A stretch of DNA of 64,000 nucleotides from an uncultured Candidatus Peribacteria bacterium (GCA_964596675.1 CAZQUZ010000003.1:30198-94197), one strand, 5' to 3'; counted from the stretch's first letter, positions 10,608 through 25,216 are shown. Program-made: numbers and translations. The notes: a model not told the origin generated them from the sequence alone.

Positions 10608-10645
10608 CTTCTATTATTTTTATTCTCTTGCTTGATAAAATAGAT

Positions 10646-10673
10646 AAAGACTCACTTCCGTGAGTCTTTTTTC
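10646..10673 (+). terminator. rho-independent terminator
   Basis: Stem AAAGACTCAC / GTGAGTCTTT with loop TTCC, then a T-run. Confidence 0.6.
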
Positions 10674-10742
10674 TGTCTCAAAACTTATATAAGTGTGACT
10701 CAGGCTTTAATCTACTGTCTTACAATTTGCTGGCAATAAACA

Positions 10743-10775
10743 AAAACTTCCTCTGAATCAGAGGAAGTTTTTTAT
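10743..10775. terminator. bidirectional terminator (ends the tRNA-Leu transcript on the minus strand)
   Basis: Stem AAACTTCCTCTG / CAGAGGAAGTTT, with an A-run before and a T-run after. Confidence 0.6.
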
Positions 10776-10781
10776 TTTTCA

Positions 10782-10866
10782 TGGTGCCCAAGATGGGATT
10801 TGAACCCACACGTCCGAAGGACATACGCATCTGAAACGTACATGTCTACCATTCCATCACCTGGGC
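10782..10866 (-). tRNA. tRNA-Leu(CAG)
   Basis: 85-nt cloverleaf. Acceptor GCCCAGG/CTTGGGC, anticodon stem TACGT/GCGTA, loop TTCAGAT (anticodon CAG), long variable arm, T-loop TTCAAAT, and an encoded CCA. Confidence 0.9.
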
Positions 10867-11118
10867 ATATTTTTCGGACCTATTTATTTTGGTACATGTA
10901 CCCCTCTCGAATGTACCCCTCTCATGTGTCGCACCAACTTCGTTGGATGCTGGCATTCGGGAGTATGGCTCGCATCAAAGATGCTCACACATCGTACCGC
11001 TTCGCGGATACTCGCTCTCTGGGGTATGGCTCCGACATCATCACTTACGTTCTGTGTCTTCGCACATCTACCATTTCCCCCTCCGGGGATTTACGCACCA
11101 CCCGAGCAGGACTCGCCT
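10867..11118 (-). ncRNA. candidate ~250-nt structured RNA co-oriented with and immediately 5' of tRNA-Leu (class unknown)
   Basis: A GC-richer block. The minus strand is closed in all frames, while the plus strand is stop-free in all three frames (track ORFs 10800-11120, 10889-11296, 10924-11127). It has many short GC hairpins (CCGCGAAGCGG, CCAACGAAGUUGG, UCCCCGGAGGGGGA, GCAUCUUUGAUGC) and internal repeats GAGCCAUAC (x2) and GAGAGGGGUACAU (x2). A possible TTGCAA-N15-TATACT promoter lies at 11145-11119. Confidence 0.4.
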
Positions 11119-11173
11119 AGTATATAGGAAAATCTCAGATTGCAAATGGAGAAAAAAGAAATATTATCACTCC

Positions 11174-12154
11174 ATGAAAACTTCACTTTTTACCTACATC
11201 GAATACGCATTTCGGACGCTCTTTTCGAGGCGATTTTTTACGATAGTCGGCTCATCACTCATCGTGTCATTTCTCTCCGTGATAACGACTCTCTGAGGTG
11301 GATATATGATGCTCAGATATCTCCGTGAGACGCTCATGAAGACCCAAAACATCGAAGAGGATGCTATCCTGATGCTTATCGGGGGATTTCTCGTATTTCT
11401 CCTTATCCTCATGATAGTAGTATTTCTCATGCGAGGATGGTATGCTATCATCATCCCAATACGCTCCATCGACCGCGCAGAGACGCTCGACATCGCATCA
11501 GACTCTCGACTCTATCGCAGGCATATCGGTACATATTTCGGCTATATCATGTGGTATAGTCTCACATGGACACTCTTCATCACCATCTACATCATCGGAC
11601 TTATCCTCATGAGTGCTCTCGCTCCTATCCTCGGTGGGATATGGTCCCTGGTCGGTCTATGAGCGCTCATCTATCTCGGGACTCGTATGAGCGTATCGTG
11701 GTATCATATGCTCTCAGAAGGCTCTACGAGCTATCCCTCATGGCGACTCGCACTCCGTATGACACGCGGTCGGGTGTGGAGGATGTTTTATCAGATATGC
11801 GGATATGCTATCATCATCTGGATCACGAGCGGACTCATCGAGTCGATGATGATGCAGATACTCTCCGTCTTCGGGGTCGGGAATATCGCGGATGATATCG
11901 CTCGCCTCATGGTGCTCTATAGAGATGATATCACACTCATACTCCAGTCGCTCGAGGCATATGTATGAGAAAATAGTGTGAGGATCATCCCCATGATAGG
12001 ATGGTTCGCGCTCTGGTACAGTATGAGTTCTGTACTCTCTCGGGCGATGTTCTCTATTTTTTATGTCAGGTACTATCTCGATATCCGCGAAGACTACCAT
12101 GATGAGCACTCATTTATAAAAAAATCTCTCCTTATACAGTCATCGCACCGATAA
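11174..12154 (+). CDS. integral membrane protein (hypothetical)
   Basis: Four track ORFs in one frame are joined by TGA (11294, 11660, 11966). It has several hydrophobic helices. The 3' end overlaps the pyrG 3' end by 23 nt. Confidence 0.6.
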
Positions 12155-14736: not shown

Positions 14737-14744
14737 AGATGTAT

Positions 14745-17174
14745 ATGTCCCACTCTCATCATACTATCACATACGAGGTCGCCGTGGATCGCGCGAATGA
14801 AAAATGAGTCTTCGTCGCTCGGGAGATGCTCTCGACCCTCCATCATGCGGTCGAGCACCTCCATCCATGGTGGCAATTTTGGCATCATAGCGTCCACCCA
14901 GTATTTCGCCTCGAGATGGTCGCGAATGAGGGGAGGATACGATTTTTCCTCTCGACCGATAGAGAGTTCGCCTCATTTATGACGAGTCAGATATATGCTC
15001 ACTATAGCGATGTAGAGCTCTTCGAGTGTGAGTCACCACTCCCGAAAAAGGCATCCTATCGAGTCCGCGACATCACCCTCGCTCATCACTCCCTCGATAC
15101 ACTGAAACTCTATGTCAATCTAAAGGATCGCACTGAAAAAGAAAGCATCGACCCACTCTCATCACTGACAAGCGCTCTATCGAAGGTGCCAAAATGAGAA
15201 AAATGAGCCTTCATCATCGACTTTGCTCCGCTCGAAGACCATATCTGGAGAGAACATGGGAGTATCAGTATCTGGGAGTCACACTTCATACCGGACTTTC
15301 TCCGCATGCAGGCGCTCCACTTCGCGAGTCATATCGGATGGCTCTTTCTCCCGCTCTCATGGACGGCGAAAGTGCTCTCATTTCTCATACCAAAAGGTGA
15401 AGACGAGCATGATACATGACATGCCCACGAGGACAAAAAAGAAAAAACTGAGACCAAGCTCGAGAGCTATGGCTATCAGGTACAGATACGCATCGTGAAA
15501 GATGTACACGATAGAGTAAATGATGAGATGATACTCCGTGAGCTCGCTGGGAGCCTGAATATATTCGCCAATCCCAATGGCAACCACCTAAAAAGCAAAA
15601 AAACGCGCATCATAGAGAATCTCCCATGACTCCATAAGCTCGCGAAGTCGTCGATGATACTCTCCGTCACCGAACTCGCAGGACTCATCCATCTCCCCAC
15701 GCTCTACGTGAAAACTCCTGGTATCCACTGGGTGACGACCCGTAAATTCGAACCCCCACACAATCTCCCATCTACAGACAATCCAAACACTCCTATCGGC
15801 ATGGCGAACTACCGCGGCGGACTCCAGGGATTCGGGCTCGAGCCTATCGACAGAGCGAGACATACCTATATCATCGGGAAGACCGGTATGGGTAAGTCGA
15901 CGCTCCTCGAGAATATGATATATACCGATATTCTAAATGGTCGTGGTGTCGCTGTCATTGATCCACATGGAGACCTCGTCGAGACGATACTCGCGAATAT
16001 CCCGAAGTCACGCACGAATGATATCGTCCTATTTGATCCAGCGGATCAGGAGTATCCGATAGGATTTAACATGCTCGATAATCCCCACCCAGAGCTCCGT
16101 CCTATCGTAGCTGGTGGGCTCGTATCGATTTTTAAGAAGATGTTTGCCGAGAGCTGGGGGCCCCGTCTCGAGTACATCCTCCGCAACACTATCCTCACAC
16201 TCCTACTCATCCCAGAAACGACACTCATCTCTATCCCACTCATGCTCACCCATGAAGCCTATAGACGTAAGGTTGTCTCGAAGATAGATGATCCTATCCT
16301 CGTCCAGTTCTGGAACGAAGAGTTCGCGAAGATGAGTCCATCGATGCAGAGCGAAGCGGTGAATCCCATACTCAATAAAGTCGGGCAATTTCTCTCATCA
16401 CCAATACTTCGAAACATCCTCGGTCAGCCGAAAAATCCATTTTCTCTGCGGTGGATCATGGATAATAAAAAAATATTTCTCGTAAACCTCTCAAAATGAC
16501 GTATCGGTGAGGATGCGAGTGCCCTCCTCGGTGCGATGATGGTGACAAAGTTCCAGATAGAAGCCATGACACGTGCTGATATACCCGAAGCAGAACGTGT
16601 AGATTTCTGACTCTATGTCGATGAGTTCCAGAACTTCGCGACCGACTCATTCGCGACGATACTCTCAGAGGCTCGTAAGTATAAGCTCTCACTTACTATG
16701 GCGAATCAGTATATCGCACAGATGGCGGAGACAGTACAAGGTGCAGTATTTGGGAATGTAGGATCTCTCGTCGCATTCCAGGTAGGATACCATGATGCGC
16801 TCACACTCGCGGAAGTCATGGGCGGTGAAGATATGATCACTCCCAATGACCTCATGAACCTGAAAAAATACGATATCTACACAAAGCTCCTCATCCATGG
16901 GATGCCATCACCAGTATTTTCTGCGACGACCTATGCACCACTCAGAGAGCGTATCGATGTGCCACCGCAGCAGTCTCGTGACGTCCTCCTGAAAGTCTCT
17001 CGTGAAAAATACACGAAGAAAAAAGACTTCGTCGAGAAAAAAATCTTCGAAAATGTAAATAAGATCCGTGATGAAGAGAAAAAACACCAAGAACAAAAAG
17101 AAGCCTATAAAGAAAAAATTAAAGAAGATCAGCGCATAAAACGCGAAAAAGAAAAAACCGAAAAATGAGCATAA
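14745..17174 (+). CDS. VirD4/TraG/TraD-like type IV coupling ATPase, paralog 1 (809 aa)
   Basis: One frame joins track ORFs 14826-15197, 15654-16499 and 16698-17168 through TGA. Motifs: Walker A IIGKTGMGKSTL, LYVDEFQNF, SEARKYKLSLTMANQY. It has a Lys/Glu-rich C-terminal tail and an N-terminal ~330-aa domain of unknown function. Confidence 0.8.
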
Positions 17175-17227: not shown

Positions 17228-18175
17228 ATGAAATATCTCCTTCTTTTTTTCCTTGCATCTTTCACATTCTCAGATGCATTTGCTGTGAATGATAGTCTCA
17301 ATATTCGCGATACAACGAATGTGATGATATGAGGAAATAGTGAGCATGATAACTTAAGTACTTTTATCTATCCGGTACTTGATTTCTTCTATATACCAAC
17401 TGGAAATAACGATGCTATCCAAAATACATTTATCGCTATAGCAGGAGGAATTAAAAATTTTTTCATTCTTATTGCGGTTATTTTTCTCATCGTCGGTGTG
17501 ATGAAATTATTTTTCTGATGAGGGGACGAAGAGGCACAAAAAAAATGGAAAAGCAATATTATCTGGGTATCTGTGGGAGTATTCTTTATGCAAATCGCCT
17601 ATTCTATATGGCGTACACTCTACTTCGATGAGAACTTTGCTCGTATCGATGGACGACTCGGATGGATGACATGGATAAATGTATTTGAGCCGATAGTAAA
17701 TATCCTCCTCCTTCTGGCATCATTTGGCTTTATCGCGATGGCGATATATGCATTTTATACGATTATCACCGGAGCTGGTGACGAAGAAAAGCTGAAAAAA
17801 TGAAAAAATATCGTCATATATGCACTCATTGGGTACCTCCTTATACGAGTCCCAAAATTTCTCGTCACTGCCCTCTATGGTGAGCCATCGTGAGAGTGTA
17901 AAAATAACGTCTGGAGTTTTTGAACATGTGAAATCGAAAACCAAAATCTTGGAGCAAGTATTAATGTATTCTGAAAAATACTCACCTATCTCAGTAGTTT
18001 TCTCGCACTTTTTGCTGTCATCATGGTTATATATGCTGGATGGCTCATCTTCATATCCGGGGGTGATGAAGAGAAGTTAAAGAAGGCAAAACGTACTATT
18101 ATCTATCTTGCTATCGGACTTATACTTCTCGTAGCCAGTCAGGCAATATTTCGATTTTTCTTTCTGAAAGGCTAA
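17228..18175 (+). CDS. triple VirB2/TrbC-like pilin fusion protein (315 aa)
   Basis: Signal peptide MKYLLLFFLASFTFSDAFA. There are three tandem units, each consisting of a TM helix, then G(G/A)GDEE and a K-rich turn, then a second TM helix: FFGGGDEEAQKKWKSN, ITGAGDEEKLKKGKN and ISGGDEEKLKKAKRT. I translated it codon by codon under code 25. Confidence 0.7.
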
Positions 18176-18225: not shown

Positions 18226-20649
18226 ATGCAGATAGCGGAAGTCATTTTTCTTATTTTAGGAGTACTCTTCGTGGTATGAGTTTTTTATATTCTCACGAAA
18301 AAGAAGATCGCACTAAAACGCTCACTCGATATGAGATTTCTCCGTATTATCATCGGACGGAAAGATAGTGAAAAAGATGAGCGATGAGACACTGTCAAAG
18401 ACTTTCGTGAGCAGATATCTATCATGGAGCAACTCCTCGCAAGTATGAAGTCTCTCTATGTAGGAAATGCGATGGGATGGCTCTTTGGTCAGGAGTATAT
18501 CTCTCTCGAATATATCGCCCATAAACAGGAAATATACTTTTATATCGTCGTACCAAAAAAATCGAAAATCCTTGTCGAAAAACAGATTCTCGGTTTTTAT
18601 CCAGATGCGAGTATCGAGGAGACGGATGAAGTCAATATTTTCGAAGGGCGGAGTGTGGTGCGAGGCGAGATCTTGAAGCTCAAGAAACATGATGAATTCC
18701 CAATACGTACCTATCAAAAACTCGAGACTGACCCGATGAATAGCCTCCTTTCTGCACTCGGAAAACTCAACGAGGAAGAGTCGAGCTCCATCCAGATTCT
18801 CATGAGACCAGTAGATGATGACTGGCAAGACCGAATCCGTAAACATATAAAAAAATCTGAGAAAAAATGATGACACCATATGTCATGGAATCCTCTCGAT
18901 TGGATACTTTGATTTATCGATGCATTTACACGCTGAAACTCTGAAAAATCATCTTCAGATGAACATGATGAGAGTGAGCCGATCGATGAAGAAGGGCTTA
19001 TGAAAGAAAAAATAAAAAAGACAGGCTATCAGGTAACAATACGTGTTATTACGACTGGTAATGACGAGAATGATGTCTATGCGGAGCTCCAAAATATTCT
19101 TTCTGCATTTTCTCAGTTCGCTTCACCGATGTATAACCGATTTAAAGCCGTAAAGAAAAAATCTATCTCACTCCTCATCAATAACTATATTTTTCGTCAA
19201 TTTAGTGCTTGGCAAGGTGGATATATACTCAATAGTGAGGAGCTCGCGACACTTTTTCACTTTCCGCATAGTAAATATAATAAGCAACCTGAGATTCGTT
19301 GGCAGCGGTTTAAGCTGATAAAGGCACCAACCAATATCGCAAAAGAGTGACTGTATATCGGAGATAATGTATTTCGTGGAGAGAAAAAACCGATTTTTAT
19401 CAAAAATGAGGACCGATTTCGACATTTTTATGTCATCGGACAGACTGGTACAGGTAAATCATCTATCCTATCGACGATGGCGCGCCAAGATGTGCGCGAG
19501 TGACGTGGACTTGCCATACTCGACCCACACGGTGACCTCGCGAAAGAACTCGTATGATATATCCCTAGAGAACGTGCTGATGATTTGGTATATTTTGACC
19601 CTGGGGATCTCGCACGTCCTATGGGGCTGAATATGCTCGAAGCCGCGAATGATGACGAAAAACAAATGGTCGTAGCCGATGCTACGAATATCATGATAAA
19701 ACTCTTTGGAAGTGAGATATTCGGACCTCGTATCCAGGACTACTTTCGCAATGGATGTCTCACCCTCATGGACTATCCACAAGGCTGAGCCATCACTGAT
19801 ATTATCAGACTCTTTACAGATGATAACTTCCAGCGGGAGCGCCGAGCTACCCTAAAAAATGCAGTCGTAAAAGCCTGGTGGGATTATACGTATGCCAAGA
19901 TGGGTGAGCGAGAAAAAGGAGAAATTATCCCATATTTCGCAGCGAAATTCGGACAATTTATCACCAATACCATGATGCGTAATATCGTGTGACAGACGAA
20001 GAGCGCATTCGATATCGGAGAGATCATGAACAATGAAAAACTCCTCCTCATCTCACTCTCGAAAGGTATCATCGGTGATCTGAACTCGACGCTGCTCGGT
20101 CTCATCCTCGTCTCGAAGATACAGATCGCAGCCCTACGCAGACAAAATATGGCGAAAGAGGATCGTAAAGATTTCTTTCTCTATATCGACGAGTTCCAGA
20201 ACTATGTGACCGACTCTATCGAGTCTATCCTCTCAGAAGCTCGTAAGTATCGCCTCGGACTCGTCATCGCGCATCAGTACCTCGGACAACTCGAGAAGTC
20301 AGATGCTCTCACGAAATCGAATCTGAATCTCAAGTGAGCCATATTTGGTAACGTAGGAACTGTCATGAGTTATAAGCTCGGTGCGGAGGATGCTGAGTTC
20401 ATGGCGAAGCAATTTGCTCCAGCATACTCTGAGCAAGACTTCGTCAATATGGATAAGTTTAAGGCTGCACTCAAACTCTCGGTCGATAATCAACCAACAC
20501 CAGGATTCTCCCTCTCACCACCGAATCCATTTGCTGAGATGCCAGATGCAAAAATCGGAGCCGCCCTGAAAGAGCTTTCGCGATTAAAGTATGGTCGCGA
20601 GAGAGAGTTCGTCGAGAAAGAAATTATTTATCGCATAGGTGCTGTCTAA
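18226..20649 (+). CDS. VirD4/TraG/TraD-like type IV coupling ATPase, paralog 2 (807 aa)
   Basis: N-terminal TM anchor (IFLILGVLFVVGVFYIL). Motifs: Walker A VIGQTGTGKSSI, LYIDEFQNY, SEARKYRLGLVIAHQY. It joins six track ORFs (18424, 19000, 19585, 20026, 20365...) in one frame. The N-domain is paralogous to gene 14745-17174. Confidence 0.8.
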
Positions 20650-20651
20650 TT

Positions 20652-21611
20652 ATGAAATTTTTTTATACTTTCATCTCGCTTGTGACTGTCTCATCCAGTA
20701 TCATACCGATAGTGGCAGCTGAGGATATGGTCGGCTGTGATACGAAGACGTATGCATGCTATACGCAAAAAGTATCTCAGAGTTGCACGAAAACAGGACT
20801 TCCCTGGACCAAAAATCCGAATCTTTGAAAGACAAGTTCCTGCGACTATCCTGATTTTACAGAGGAAGGACTAAAAAGTGTAGTGAATTGTATGGAAAAT
20901 GCGGATACAAAAAGCGGTGGAGGATTTCTCGAGAATCTCACTCTTTCGAATCTCGGTAATATCCCTGGATTTCGTACTACAGAAATCGCACGAAAAATAT
21001 ATCGAAAAAATATGAATGCCGTATTTGGCTGTGCTGTGCTAGCAAGTCGCCAGGACAAGCTCACTCGACTGGAGGAATCCATACGCTGAAATTCTCAGGC
21101 GAGCGACATCCAAAAAAGTCTAGAAAAAGAACGGAAAAAATATGAGTCTCTTATGTCACGCATGAATTGTAATCAAAATCGTACAGAAAGTCCCGAAGAT
21201 AAAGTCATCGACCGGCTTTCTGCGAGCGCGATGCAAGAATATTGTAGTTATACGTATTATCTCGATTATCTCGAGGCAAATCTACAAAATGATTTTTCTG
21301 AAGCAGAAAAGACAGAGTTATCACTCCGCGATGTCACGCTCCAAAATCGTGCTACTACCACAGAACAAGCCGGGAAAATATGGAGAACATACCAAGCTAC
21401 GATTGACTCAGAGCGCTCCAGAGCACATGAAACTGTACCCAAGGCCATCCTCGCTTACCAAGAAATGGATCGTACTTATATCACACATATCCTTCTCGTC
21501 ATCATTTTCGATGACTATCTGAAACTCAGGGGCAACCTCGATACCTACCTCGCTCTCATTTCCCAAACATTCGAAAAAGCATATAATGCGCAGGATGCAC
21601 GGCAAAGATAA
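20652..21611 (+). CDS. secreted Cys-rich protein (hypothetical, 319 aa)
   Basis: ATG lies 2 nt after the upstream stop. It has a signal peptide (MKFFYTFISLVTVSSSIIPIVAA) and several Cys in the N-terminal third. It joins track ORFs 20883-21089 and 21153-21611. Confidence 0.6.
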
Positions 21612-21641
21612 AAAATCCCCATCATATGATGGGGATTTTTC
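21611..21641. terminator. bidirectional terminator
   Basis: Stem AAAATCCCCA / TGGGGATTTT between convergent genes. Confidence 0.7.
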
Positions 21642-21860
21642 CTATTTTCCGAGCTCTTCTGTCTTCTTCTGACGAGCATAGAACTTGTCCATAGTACTGG
21701 TTTTGAGGAGGGTCTTCTTTCCTGTGTAGAATGGGTGACATTTAGAACAGGTTTCGACACGTATCTCATCACCTTTTATCGTACTTCCAGTTTCGAAAGT
21801 ATTTCCACATGAACAGATGACATTTACCATCTTCCATGCTGGGTGGATATTGCTTTTCAT
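21642..21860 (-). CDS. rpmE: 50S ribosomal protein L31
   Basis: MKSNIHPAW..., with CSCGNTF...[11 protein letters not shown]. Contains no TGA. Confidence 0.9.
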
Positions 21861-22017
21861 AAAAATGAATGGTTAAGAGTAATCGCGAATCGCTCAGTCC
21901 TCGTCTCGAGGAAAGATACGAGTGCCTCTTGTTATTTTTTATGGCGAAATAACAAACCATGAGATTCAATACTCAAAACTAAGAACATAATCCCTACTTT
22001 CGAATACTGAACCGAAG

Positions 22018-22102
22018 TGGTGCCCAGGAAGAGACTTGAACTCTTACACCGTACGGCAACGGCTTCTAAGACCGTCGTGTCTACCAATTCCACCACCTGG
22101 GC
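22018..22102 (-). tRNA. tRNA-Leu(TAG)
   Basis: 85 nt. Acceptor GCCCAGG/CCTGGGC, anticodon loop CTTAGAA, long variable arm, T-loop TTCAAGT, and an encoded CCA. Confidence 0.9.
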
Positions 22103-22114
22103 AGAAAAAACTAA

Positions 22115-22199
22115 TGGTGGGCCGGGTAGGATTCGAACCTACGAAGTCGTAGACAAAGGATTTACAGTCCTCCCCATTTGACCGCTCTGGAACCGACCC
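22115..22199 (-). tRNA. tRNA-Tyr(GTA)
   Basis: 85 nt. Acceptor GGGTCGG/CCGGCCC, anticodon loop CTGTAAA, long variable arm, T-loop TTCGAAT, and an encoded CCA. Confidence 0.9.
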
Positions 22200-22288
22200 A
22201 GAAAAAAAGTTTTAACCCTCAGAATTTTAGATTTTCGATATTGTTTTTTACCAAAATCCAATATTCCAAACATTAAAACTCCAGAGAA

Positions 22289-22364
22289 TGGAGCCACCAA
22301 TCAGACTTGAACTGATGACCGCCGGTTTACAAAACCGATGCTCTACCAACTGAGCTATGGTGGC
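22289..22364 (-). tRNA. tRNA-Thr(TGT)
   Basis: 76 nt. Acceptor GCCACCA/TGGTGGC, D-arm GCTCAGTTGGTAGAGC, anticodon loop TTTGTAA, T-loop TTCAAGT, and an encoded CCA. Confidence 0.9.
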
Positions 22365-22502
22365 GCTCGGGCAGATAATATAAAAAATCGAGGTGATGTC
22401 AAAATTTTTTTGCTGATTTTTTACTCTTCTCTATAATAGATTCTCTCTATAATACTGTTTTTCAGTATCAAAAGGCTCTTCTAGACTCATTTACCCTATT
22501 TT

Positions 22503-23071: not shown

Positions 23072-25216
23072 ATGGCTATTTCTAAGGATCTAAAAGGAAT
23101 CCGAAACTTTGGTATCTGTGCGCATATCGATGCGGGTAAGACGACTACGTCTGAGCGTGTCCTTTTCTATAGCGGTATCACACATAAGATCGGTGAAGTA
23201 CACGATGGTGCGGCGACTATGGACTGGATGGCTCAGGAGCAAGAGCGTGGTATCACTATCACCTCTGCTGCGACGACTACGACATGGAACGGCGTACAGC
23301 TCAATCTCATCGATACTCCTGGACACGTAGACTTTACGATCGAGGTAGAGCGTTCTATGCGTGTACTCGACGGTGCTGTAGCAGTATTCGATGCATCACA
23401 GGGTGTAGAGCCACAGTCTGAGACAGTATGGAAGCAGGCAGATAAATACGGAGTTCCTCGTATCGCATTCGCGAATAAGATGGATAAGACGGGTGGTAAC
23501 TTTATGATGACATATGAGTCTATCATAAAGCGTCTCGCTGGAAACAAAGTCATCCCTATCCAGCTCCCTATCGGTCAGGAAAACGACTTCGAAGGTATCA
23601 TCTCTCTCGTAAATATGCGTGCATATAAGTTCGAGGGAAAGATGGGTGAGAAGGTCGTAGAGATGGATATCCCTGAGTCACATAAGGCTGAGGCTCAGAA
23701 ATGGCATGAAGCCCTCGTCGAGAAAGCTGCAGAGCAAGATGACGAGCTCATGAACAAGTTCTTCGAAAATGGAACTCTCACAGAAGCTGAGATAAAGCAA
23801 GGTATCCGAAAATGAGTAATCGCTGATGCACTCTACCCACTCATGTGTGGTAGTGCCCTCATGAATAAGTGAGTCCAGCTCGTCCTCGATGCGGTAGTAG
23901 ACTACCTCCCATCTCCACTCGATGTAAACGAGGGAACTATCACTGGTACTGATGTCGATGATATCGAGACAAAAATCACCCTCAAACAAGATCCAAATGA
24001 AACTCTTGGTGCTATCGCGTTTAAGATCATGACAGATCCATTCGTCGGACGTATCACATTCGTACGTGTCTATGCTGGTACTCTAAAATCTGGTACCTAC
24101 GTACTGAACTCTGTCTCTGGTGAGAGAGAGCGTATCGGACGCCTGCTCCAGATGCACGCGAACAACCGTACTGAGATCGATGAGATCCCAGCAGGTAATA
24201 TCGGTGCAGTTATCGGACTCAAGGATACAAAAACTGGTGACACGCTCTGTGATGAGAACAAGCCTCTCGTCCTCGAACGTATGATATTTCCAGAGCCAGT
24301 AATCTCTATCTCTGTAGAGCCAAAGACAAAGGCTGATCAGGAAAAAATGGGTATGGCGCTCAATAAACTCGCTGAAGAAGATCCATCATTCCGTGTATCA
24401 TCCAATGCTGAAACTGGTCAGACGATCATGGCGGGTATGGGAGAGCTTCACCTCGAAATCCTCGTAGATCGTATGAAGCGTGAGTTTAAGGTCGAGGCCA
24501 ATGTCGGTGCTCCTCAGGTAGCATACCGTGAAACCATCACTGCTACTGTAACTGACGAGCGTGGAGTCCATAAAAAACAATCAGGAGGTCGTGGACAGTT
24601 CGGTGATGTCGTCATGACATTCGAGCCGATCACTCCAGAGATGCGTGCTGCAGATCCGGAAGCTCTTGCTTCAGAAACAGTGTTTGTAAACAAAATCGTC
24701 GGATGAGTCGTCCCTCGTGAGTTCATCCCTGCGATCGAAAAGGGTCTCGTACAGGCATACGCTCGTGGTATTATCGCTGGATATCCTATCGTGGATGTCC
24801 GTGCGACACTCACATTCGGTAGCTACCATGATGTCGACTCAAATGAGCTCGCGTTCCGTATGGCTGCGATTAAGGCATTCCGCCAGGCTGCGAAAAAAGC
24901 TCGCCCAGCCCTCCTCGAGCCTATCATGCTCGTAGAGGTGAATACTCCAGAAGAGTACATGGGTGATGTCCTCGGAAACCTCAATAGTAAGCGTGGTCAG
25001 ATCATCGAGATGACAGAACGTGGTATGGCAAAAATCATCCGTGCTCATGTACCACTCTCAGAAATGTTCGGATACTCTACAGATCTCCGCTCATCGAGCC
25101 AGGGTCGTGCGACATACGCTATGGAGTTTGCTCACTATGCTCAGGTACCAAATAATATCACAGAAAAAATCCGTGCAGAACGTGGTGTGAAATTCGAGGA
25201 GGACGAAGAAGAATAG
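23072..25216 (+). CDS. fusA: elongation factor G
   Basis: 714 aa. Motifs [17 protein letters not shown] and NKMD. It has three in-frame TGA codons. Those at 23870-23872 and 24704-24706 fall on the conserved Gly of NKGVQ and IVGGVVP. Confidence 0.97.

Follow-up and report, generated by a model that had tools for sequence, protein, structure and literature searches.

A conserved Gracilibacteria gene encoding three diverged VirB2/TrbC-like pilin hairpins in one polypeptide chain

Pilins of the VirB2/TrbC/TraA type (PF04956) are single hairpins of 70-120 aa, in which a signal peptide is followed by two long hydrophobic helices joined through a short basic cytoplasmic turn, and their genes lie next to virB4. 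In Patescibacteria, the T4SS is essential for the epibiotic life of one genetically tested member, and its VirB2-like pilins mark it off from other monoderm T4SSs. A survey of these systems described arrays of 2-11 separate pilin genes, the members of which average 25% identity, and reported no VirB6 in Gracilibacteria (PMC12102498, Quinonero-Coronel et al. 2025), and Ca. Southlakia epibionticum carries an essential six-gene pilin array (PMC10633639, Wang et al. 2023). A further pilin-like hairpin of a monoderm T4SS is the Mbov_0395 family of Mycoplasma ICEs (NF045849), which has one unit in about 80 aa, is encoded on a mobile element and has a VirB4 neighbour. Head-to-tail fusion of a normally oligomerising two-TM hairpin is known from the c/K subunits of V/A-type ATPase rotor rings, which are duplicated in many cases, triplicated in Methanocaldococcus jannaschii and present as 13 hairpins in Methanopyrus kandleri (PMC2359735, Mulkidjanian et al. 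2008). No fused pilins appear in PMC12102498, a 2025 T4SS review and the Southlakia Tn-seq paper (PMC10633639) likewise describe separate pilin genes only, and a Gracilibacteria metaproteomics paper treats type IV systems in general terms only.

The window, by which we mean the whole 64,000-nucleotide stretch of DNA that was analysed, contains a gene for which a reading of the sequence (the original prediction) had proposed a signal peptide followed by the same pilin-like unit three times in a 315-aa product, an arrangement not known to that reader as a described feature. Our literature searches found no description of a triple-hairpin fusion, and the papers that were located report separate pilin genes, so the proposed novelty stands. 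The gene lies in a four-gene unit with the following parts:

14739-17174, plus strand: upstream ATPase of 811 aa, coupling-protein (VirD4/TrwB)-like, of the VirB4/VirD4 superfamily (Pfam TrwB_AAD_bind, T4SS-DNA_transf and TraG-D_C; TrwB in the PDB at E 3.3e-8).
17228-18175, plus strand: triple-hairpin pilin-like gene, paralogue A, 315 codons and a TAA stop, with seven in-frame TGA codons read as glycine.
18226-20649, plus strand: downstream ATPase of 807 aa, VirB4/DUF87-like, with an N-terminal TM anchor at aa 1-28 (Pfam DUF87 and TrwB_AAD_bind).
20652-21611, plus strand: orf319, with which the unit's genes end, encoding a secreted, Cys-rich protein of no assigned family with an N-terminal hydrophobic segment, kept after the ATPase in relatives.
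21611-21640, plus strand: terminator-like hairpin with a 13-bp stem and a T-run, which ends the unit.

Under table 11 the frame at 17228-18175 is interrupted by seven in-frame stops, every one TGA (codons 35, 97, 98, 192, 222, 232 and 249), and it is open under code 25 (TGA=Gly) only, which gives the 315-aa product. That TGA encodes glycine in the genome of the window is established. EF-G (23072-25216), aligned to solved EF-G, has TGA at the universally conserved glycines of 'NKGV' and 'VGGVVP', CTP synthase has it at glycines in 'TGGV' and 'KGGNMRLG', and eight large ORFs together hold 106 in-frame TGA and zero in-frame TAA or TAG. Code 4 (TGA=Trp) was ruled out, since TGA falls at universally conserved glycines and Trp in the window is encoded separately by TGG. 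Named relatives of the protein come nearly all from Candidatus Gracilibacteria MAGs; the host is an ultra-small symbiotic bacterium.

An exact look-up of the code-25 and code-4 translations in the sequence collection returned no identical protein. The public translations of database orthologues (P0003-P0117) often carry W at an expected glycine, even inside the motif ('WWAWDEE', 'SWGDEE'), evidently where gene callers had taken TGA as Trp under code 4, and high-identity database fragments of 63-120 aa look like code-11 truncations. The family is therefore easily missed or mangled, being cut into fragments under code 11 and given W for G, signature motif included, under code 4.

Within the product, the following segments were delimited:

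17228-17284, plus strand: signal peptide, aa 1-19, MKYLLLFFLASFTFSDAFA followed by VN (cleavage ...SDAFA/VN), from direct reading of the sequence; n-h-c pattern, AxA-type site kept in orthologues.
17285-17413, plus strand: external N-terminal segment, aa 20-62, with a conserved 'IN(V/I)RDT' patch (orthologue alignment; K+R 5%).
17414-17620, plus strand: hairpin unit 1, helices aa 63-96 and 101-131 (AF2 secondary structure; Pfam 31.7 bits alone; hhalign 97.2% to TrbC-passing pilins).
17516-17551, plus strand: turn 1, GGGDEEAQKKWK, aa 97-108, predicted cytoplasmic, the first two G encoded by TGA (K+R 22%).
17621-17650, plus strand: external linker 1, aa 132-141, with a less conserved stretch running to about aa 152 (orthologue alignment, AF2, K+R content).
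17651-17878, plus strand: hairpin unit 2, helices aa 142-181 and 186-217 (AF2; Pfam 29.8 bits alone; hhalign 97.7%).
17771-17806, plus strand: turn 2, GAGDEEKLKKGK, aa 182-193, predicted cytoplasmic, the last G encoded by TGA (K+R 30%).
17879-17947, plus strand: external linker 2, aa 218-240, with Cys224 (17897-17899) and Cys234 (17927-17929), both present in 93 of 95 orthologues; short strands predicted.
17948-18163, plus strand: hairpin unit 3, helices aa 241-276 and 281-312, the most canonical of the three (Pfam 39.8 bits, TrbC 24.1 bits; hhalign 99.5%, E 3.7e-22).
18056-18091, plus strand: turn 3, SGGDEEKLKKAK, aa 277-288, predicted cytoplasmic (mean column identity 0.86; K+R 32%).

The threefold repetition that had been proposed was confirmed and greatly exceeds what chance would give. 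Pfam matched the protein in three separate stretches, unit-versus-unit hhalign gave probabilities of 96.9-98.9% (E 1.8e-10 to 1.5e-17), and the AF2 model built with 100 homologues (pLDDT 78.7, pTM 0.64; unit 3 by itself, pLDDT 84.8) folded six long helices into three hairpins with their turns at the motifs. The motifs lie where the original prediction had placed them; its G(G/A) start does not extend to the third, which begins with S instead of G. The units are mutually 20-28% identical, each with its own conserved signature, and they belong to a single ORF with a single signal peptide, with no stop codons and no hydrophobic leaders between them. Mean column identity is 0.63-0.86 in the hairpins and turns versus about 0.48 in the linkers, and turn 3 is the most conserved stretch of the protein.

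The distribution of lysine and arginine (22-32% in the turns versus 5-7% in the N-terminal segment and the linkers), together with the Cys pair of linker 2 and the conserved signal peptide, leads to a predicted topology in which the N-terminus is outside, the three tight K/R-rich turns (xGDEExxKKxK) are cytoplasmic and the two linkers are external; for aa 20-62 it is the low K+R content of 5% that places the segment outside. In this topology each hairpin would be oriented like a mature single pilin. Besides its near-invariant Cys pair, linker 2 has conserved YGxP and GxC residues, and it is probably disulfide-bonded.

Comparison with profile families placed the units among T4SS pilins. Pfam T4SS_pilin (PF18895, gathering cutoff 26.6 bits) matched the whole protein at 75.3 bits (E 3.9e-21), each unit passed the cutoff alone (31.7, 29.8 and 39.8 bits for units 1, 2 and 3), and the same family matched 30 of 31 units from relatives. 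The protein has the form typical of PF18895, that of an exported protein with two-helix hairpins and short charged K/R-rich turns. NCBIfam NF045849, the pilin-like conjugal transfer family of Mycoplasma ICEs, was matched at 50.9 bits against a cutoff of 40, in two stretches. Scored directly against PF04956 (TrbC/VirB2), the whole protein reached 19.0 bits and unit 3 alone 24.1 bits, both below the cutoff of 27.9 bits, and units from relatives reached E<=0.01 in six of 31 cases and the cutoff in none. Single-hairpin proteins that do pass the PF04956 cutoff were found in 65 of 301 Patescibacteria genomes, several of them at the same places that the window protein had matched at E 1e-9 to 1e-13. 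Against a profile of 20 such Patescibacteria proteins, hhalign gave 97.2% (E 3.4e-11) for unit 1, 97.7% (E 1.4e-12) for unit 2 and 99.5% (E 3.7e-22) for unit 3, with reversed-template controls below 1%. These profile comparisons identify the units as homologues of TrbC/VirB2-type pilins, which upholds the VirB2/TrbC-like character originally assigned to them.

The profile of the units reached no solved VirB2/TraA pilin among PDB sequences, where it matched only one designed coiled coil in which 'GDEE-KKAK' occurs by chance, and the link to pilins shown by experiment to form pili is therefore transitive. In Foldseek searches of the PDB the best E was 0.36 for the whole model and 3.2 for one hairpin, with no VirB2/TraA or VirB6 chain among the matches; a helical hairpin carries little fold information, and without a significant match the structure adds nothing past 'helical hairpins'. 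A Pfam scan of the protein showed no match to TrbL (PF04610, VirB6).

Compared with the described systems, the protein shares with VirB2/TrbC/TraA pilins the signal peptide, the helix pairs, the short basic turns and a gene next to virB4, here flanked by two ATPases of the VirB4/VirD4 superfamily, and it is tied to them through the TrbC-passing intermediates. It differs from them in that 315 aa and three hairpins form one chain where single hairpins of 70-120 aa are the rule, in scoring below the PF04956 cutoff, in reaching no solved pilin, and in having a monoderm host. With the Patescibacteria arrays it has in common the hairpin family (PF18895/PF04956), the phylum, a position near virB4 and the grouping of several diverged hairpins; whereas array members are separate, highly variable genes that each encode a signal peptide and head of their own (judged by the array genes of this genome), here three hairpins are fused in one ORF behind one signal peptide, fixed at three and conserved. 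The Mbov_0395 family resembles it through the above-cutoff match and the neighbouring VirB4, but the window gene is triple and chromosomal, with no relaxase nearby.

An exhaustive search of 1.84 billion representatives returned 4,624 relatives at E<=1e-3; among the best 150 of these, 82 had three units and 22 had four to eight. The proteins with four to eight units are true fusions, because their linkers are too short for signal peptides; such chains include P0158 (820 aa, eight units), P0161 and P0210 (seven), P0159 and P0192 (six) and P0250 (348 aa, four), some of them virtually linker-free. Full-length matches at 40-80% identity came from more than 115 clusters of proteins about 315-325 aa long, in over 100 independent assemblies. 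The original prediction had called for a search for single- versus triple-unit versions in relatives. Exactly three units were present in all 38 proteins dissected, from 21 genomes, and relatives from standard-code lineages showed the same three-unit architecture with no in-frame TGA. In the rest of the phylum the hairpin nearly always occurred singly or in tandem genes, and two-unit fusions were few.

Across the 38 proteins, units resembled their positional counterparts in other proteins most closely (28, 31 and 45 bits on the diagonal versus 18-24 off it). A tree of the 114 units required 6 changes of position versus 54 with shuffled labels, and placed all third units in one clade (SH-aLRT 90). 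The units are thus orthologous by position, which points to one ancient triplication. In whole-protein trees, paralogue group A, to which the window gene belongs, and group B separated into distinct clades. As read from these trees, the triplication came first and the duplication into A and B second, both before the sampled lineages of the class spread. Paralogue B of this genome lies elsewhere, at C2:41315-42298; A and B were both found, unlinked, in four of four genomes of the window's own family, while in other families they are usually adjacent (most lineages examined). Each genome has one A and one B, and profile matches occurred in 148 of 151 genomes of the class.

The 1.16-Mb genome itself holds 16 T4SS_pilin hairpins in 11 genes, namely one four-gene array and one two-gene array, on contigs C13 (9813-11396) and C11 (25039-25886), four scattered singles, some with Cys-rich heads, and the two triple fusions; contigs C9, C12, C7 and C1 also carry pilin genes. 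Nine of the genes encode single-hairpin pilins with variable Cys-rich heads.

Gene A adjoins an ATPase of the VirB4 family in 41 of 42 named Gracilibacteria loci, the 42nd (L068) having no upstream flank. The layouts found were T4CP-A-VirB4-orf319, VirB4-A-B and VirB4-A alone. In the closest relatives an orthologue of the upstream ATPase lies directly 5' of the pilin gene, and in close-relative loci with a downstream flank an orthologue of the downstream ATPase (66-85% identity) follows immediately 3'. The two ATPases are paralogous to each other (27-31% identity over parts of their length), and neither reached a curated NCBIfam cutoff. The upstream one has no N-terminal TM and the downstream one has its N-terminal TM anchor, the opposite of the usual VirD4/VirB4 arrangement. 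For orf319 there was no Pfam or NCBIfam match. In more distant orders the A/B pair stands among housekeeping genes (mutY, ftsK, queA) and not beside ATPases; the direct physical link to a T4SS therefore holds in the window's order only, and the setting among housekeeping genes shows that the pair belongs to the chromosome and not to a mobile element.

A fifth gene of the unit, 'orf233' (21735-22436), was considered and ruled out, as three tRNA genes occupy the minus strand there (22021-22102, 22118-22199 and 22292-22364; one more minus-strand tRNA gene lies at 10785-10866). The long code-25 'ORFs' at 21735-22436 and 10628-12154 are spurious, and the short, very highly conserved patches seen there in relatives are tRNAs. 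Other families of the class encode giant proteins (>650 to >1,500 aa) in which one T4SS_pilin hairpin close to the N-terminus precedes PKD/Ig-like repeats (L036:5039-7003, L037:5417-7504, L033:1-4618 and L034:1-3161, the last two on the minus strand). Often the A/B pair and a single pilin gene lie immediately before them, and they look like pilin-anchored surface adhesins.

We are thus highly confident that A is a real chromosomal gene of a code-25 Gracilibacteria genome, and that its product is a Sec-exported polytopic membrane protein of three diverged VirB2/TrbC-type (T4SS_pilin) hairpins in one chain, with the predicted topology and with a triplication followed by the duplication into A and B, two paralogues that are both kept class-wide.

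For the role of this protein, the account we favour is plausible, though tentative. A would be a constant core part, of fixed stoichiometry, of a Patescibacteria T4SS-like machine and not a variable surface pilin. The pre-linked trio of pilin-fold hairpins may form the membrane-embedded base or nucleus of a pilin assembly or conduit, on which the neighbouring VirB4/VirD4-type ATPases would act and to which the many single-hairpin pilins of the genome would add. The invariant cytoplasmic turns could then be where lipid head groups or the ATPases make contact, and the covalent link between three non-equivalent hairpins would set their order and ratio, as hairpin multiplication does in ATPase rotor rings. 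A core role is preferred over that of a variable fibre pilin because of the fixed copy number and the single A and single B per genome, because conservation is far above that of the published pilin arrays (40-80% among relatives of A versus 25% on average), because the external N-terminal segment is conserved, unlike the variable Cys-rich heads of the single-hairpin genes, and because each unit has its own conserved signature. Counting against it, the A/B pair of more distant orders lies away from ATPases, Foldseek found no significant match, the homology to proven pilins is transitive, and strong conservation would also fit a major fibre subunit not exposed to selection by the host.

Such a fibre subunit is the next reading to be weighed, and we regard it as unlikely but worth serious attention. 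The covalent trimer, alone or with B, would polymerise into a pilus or conduit in which one hairpin occupies one protomer position, so that the asymmetric unit would comprise three (or six) hairpins. All three units are TrbC/VirB2-type homologues in pilin orientation. In known conjugative pili both pilin termini lie on the outer face, and external linkers of about 10-35 aa from one C-terminus to the next N-terminus are geometrically plausible here; the fusions of four to eight hairpins with almost no linker suggest that side-by-side packing of linked hairpins is tolerated. However, divergence of the units to 20-28% identity, each with its own signature, is unusual for equivalent protomers, the single-hairpin pilins with variable heads look more like fibre subunits, and none of the Patescibacteria T4SSs has so far been seen to make a pilus.

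A bolder version of the conduit, which we consider improbable, involves both paralogues. The A and B pair, with six pilin-fold hairpins (12 helices) or multiples thereof, might form the conduit of a minimal monoderm T4SS, the invariant DEEKLKKAK turns docking on six-fold VirB4/VirD4-type ATPases, and the translocon would consist entirely of pilin folds that replace VirB3, VirB6 and VirB8 in Gracilibacteria.

It is very doubtful that the protein is a polyprotein, which would enter the membrane in one step by way of its only signal peptide and later be cleaved in the external linkers to release three different mature pilins at a fixed 1:1:1 ratio. TrbC/VirB2 pilins are trimmed at both ends, helices 2 and 4 run from inside to outside as signal peptides do and are followed by small-residue patterns (I-A-Y-S/I and V-T-A/L), and the linkers are the least conserved parts of the protein. 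Yet the near-invariant Cys pair, YGxP and GxC of linker 2 suggest a folded element that is retained, AF2 carries helices 2 and 4 through the putative sites, relatives with four to eight units have essentially no linker to cut, and Pfam and NCBIfam scans showed no dedicated peptidase gene in the four-gene unit.

Equally hard to credit is a substitute for VirB6, in which the six-helix protein would take the place of VirB6/TrbL, a polytopic channel component that is reported to be undetectable in Gracilibacteria. The six TM helices and the position beside the ATPases would suit such a role, as would the published survey without VirB6 homologues in Gracilibacteria; in our own searches, Pfam TrbL was not found in 14 genomes of the same order or in this genome. 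The TrbL/VirB6-like domains of the class sit inside proteins of 650-900 aa and are concentrated in family f13, where they occur in 12 of 13 genomes (e.g. G064:C13:16827-17132 and G094:C3:45599-45880). Family f13 has triple-hairpin proteins as well; this co-occurrence leaves no clean complementarity and weakens the idea, and neither sequence nor fold comparison showed any similarity of the protein to VirB6.

An artefact, either repeat mis-assembly or read-through of real stops between three small genes, was ruled out and has next to no probability: the standard-code frame is broken seven times, but the TGA codons do not lie between units and encode glycine in conserved proteins too, the signal peptide precedes the first unit only, the architecture is kept in relatives without any in-frame TGA and in more than 115 clusters, and the DNA shared among units amounts to one 31-nt stretch at 74% identity and nothing more, so that there is nothing to collapse or expand in assembly. 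The original prediction had named two findings that would overturn it, an assembly artefact of this kind and a lack of profile similarity to VirB2/TrbC, and neither was observed.

The triple-hairpin arrangement is genuine and conserved, and the literature searched does not describe it; its function we infer. The suggestion that the fusion would fix stoichiometry or register, made with the original prediction, is a reasonable hypothesis. The closest analogy is offered by the c/K hairpins of ATPase rotor rings. There, too, a two-TM hairpin that normally oligomerises is fused head-to-tail, which fixes ratio and order and lets the hairpins specialise, and the range of copies is comparable (3-8 in the pilin family); the families are unrelated and belong to other machines, and the analogy is one of principle only. 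The parallel with rotor-ring multiplication implies that the same route to a fixed stoichiometry may recur. A conserved fused trio of non-equivalent hairpins, accompanied by a second paralogue, is an attractive target for complex structure prediction, cryo-EM and topology mapping, and places a strong constraint on the structure that the pilins of these bacteria build, since it tells which hairpins are neighbours, in what order and at what ratio.
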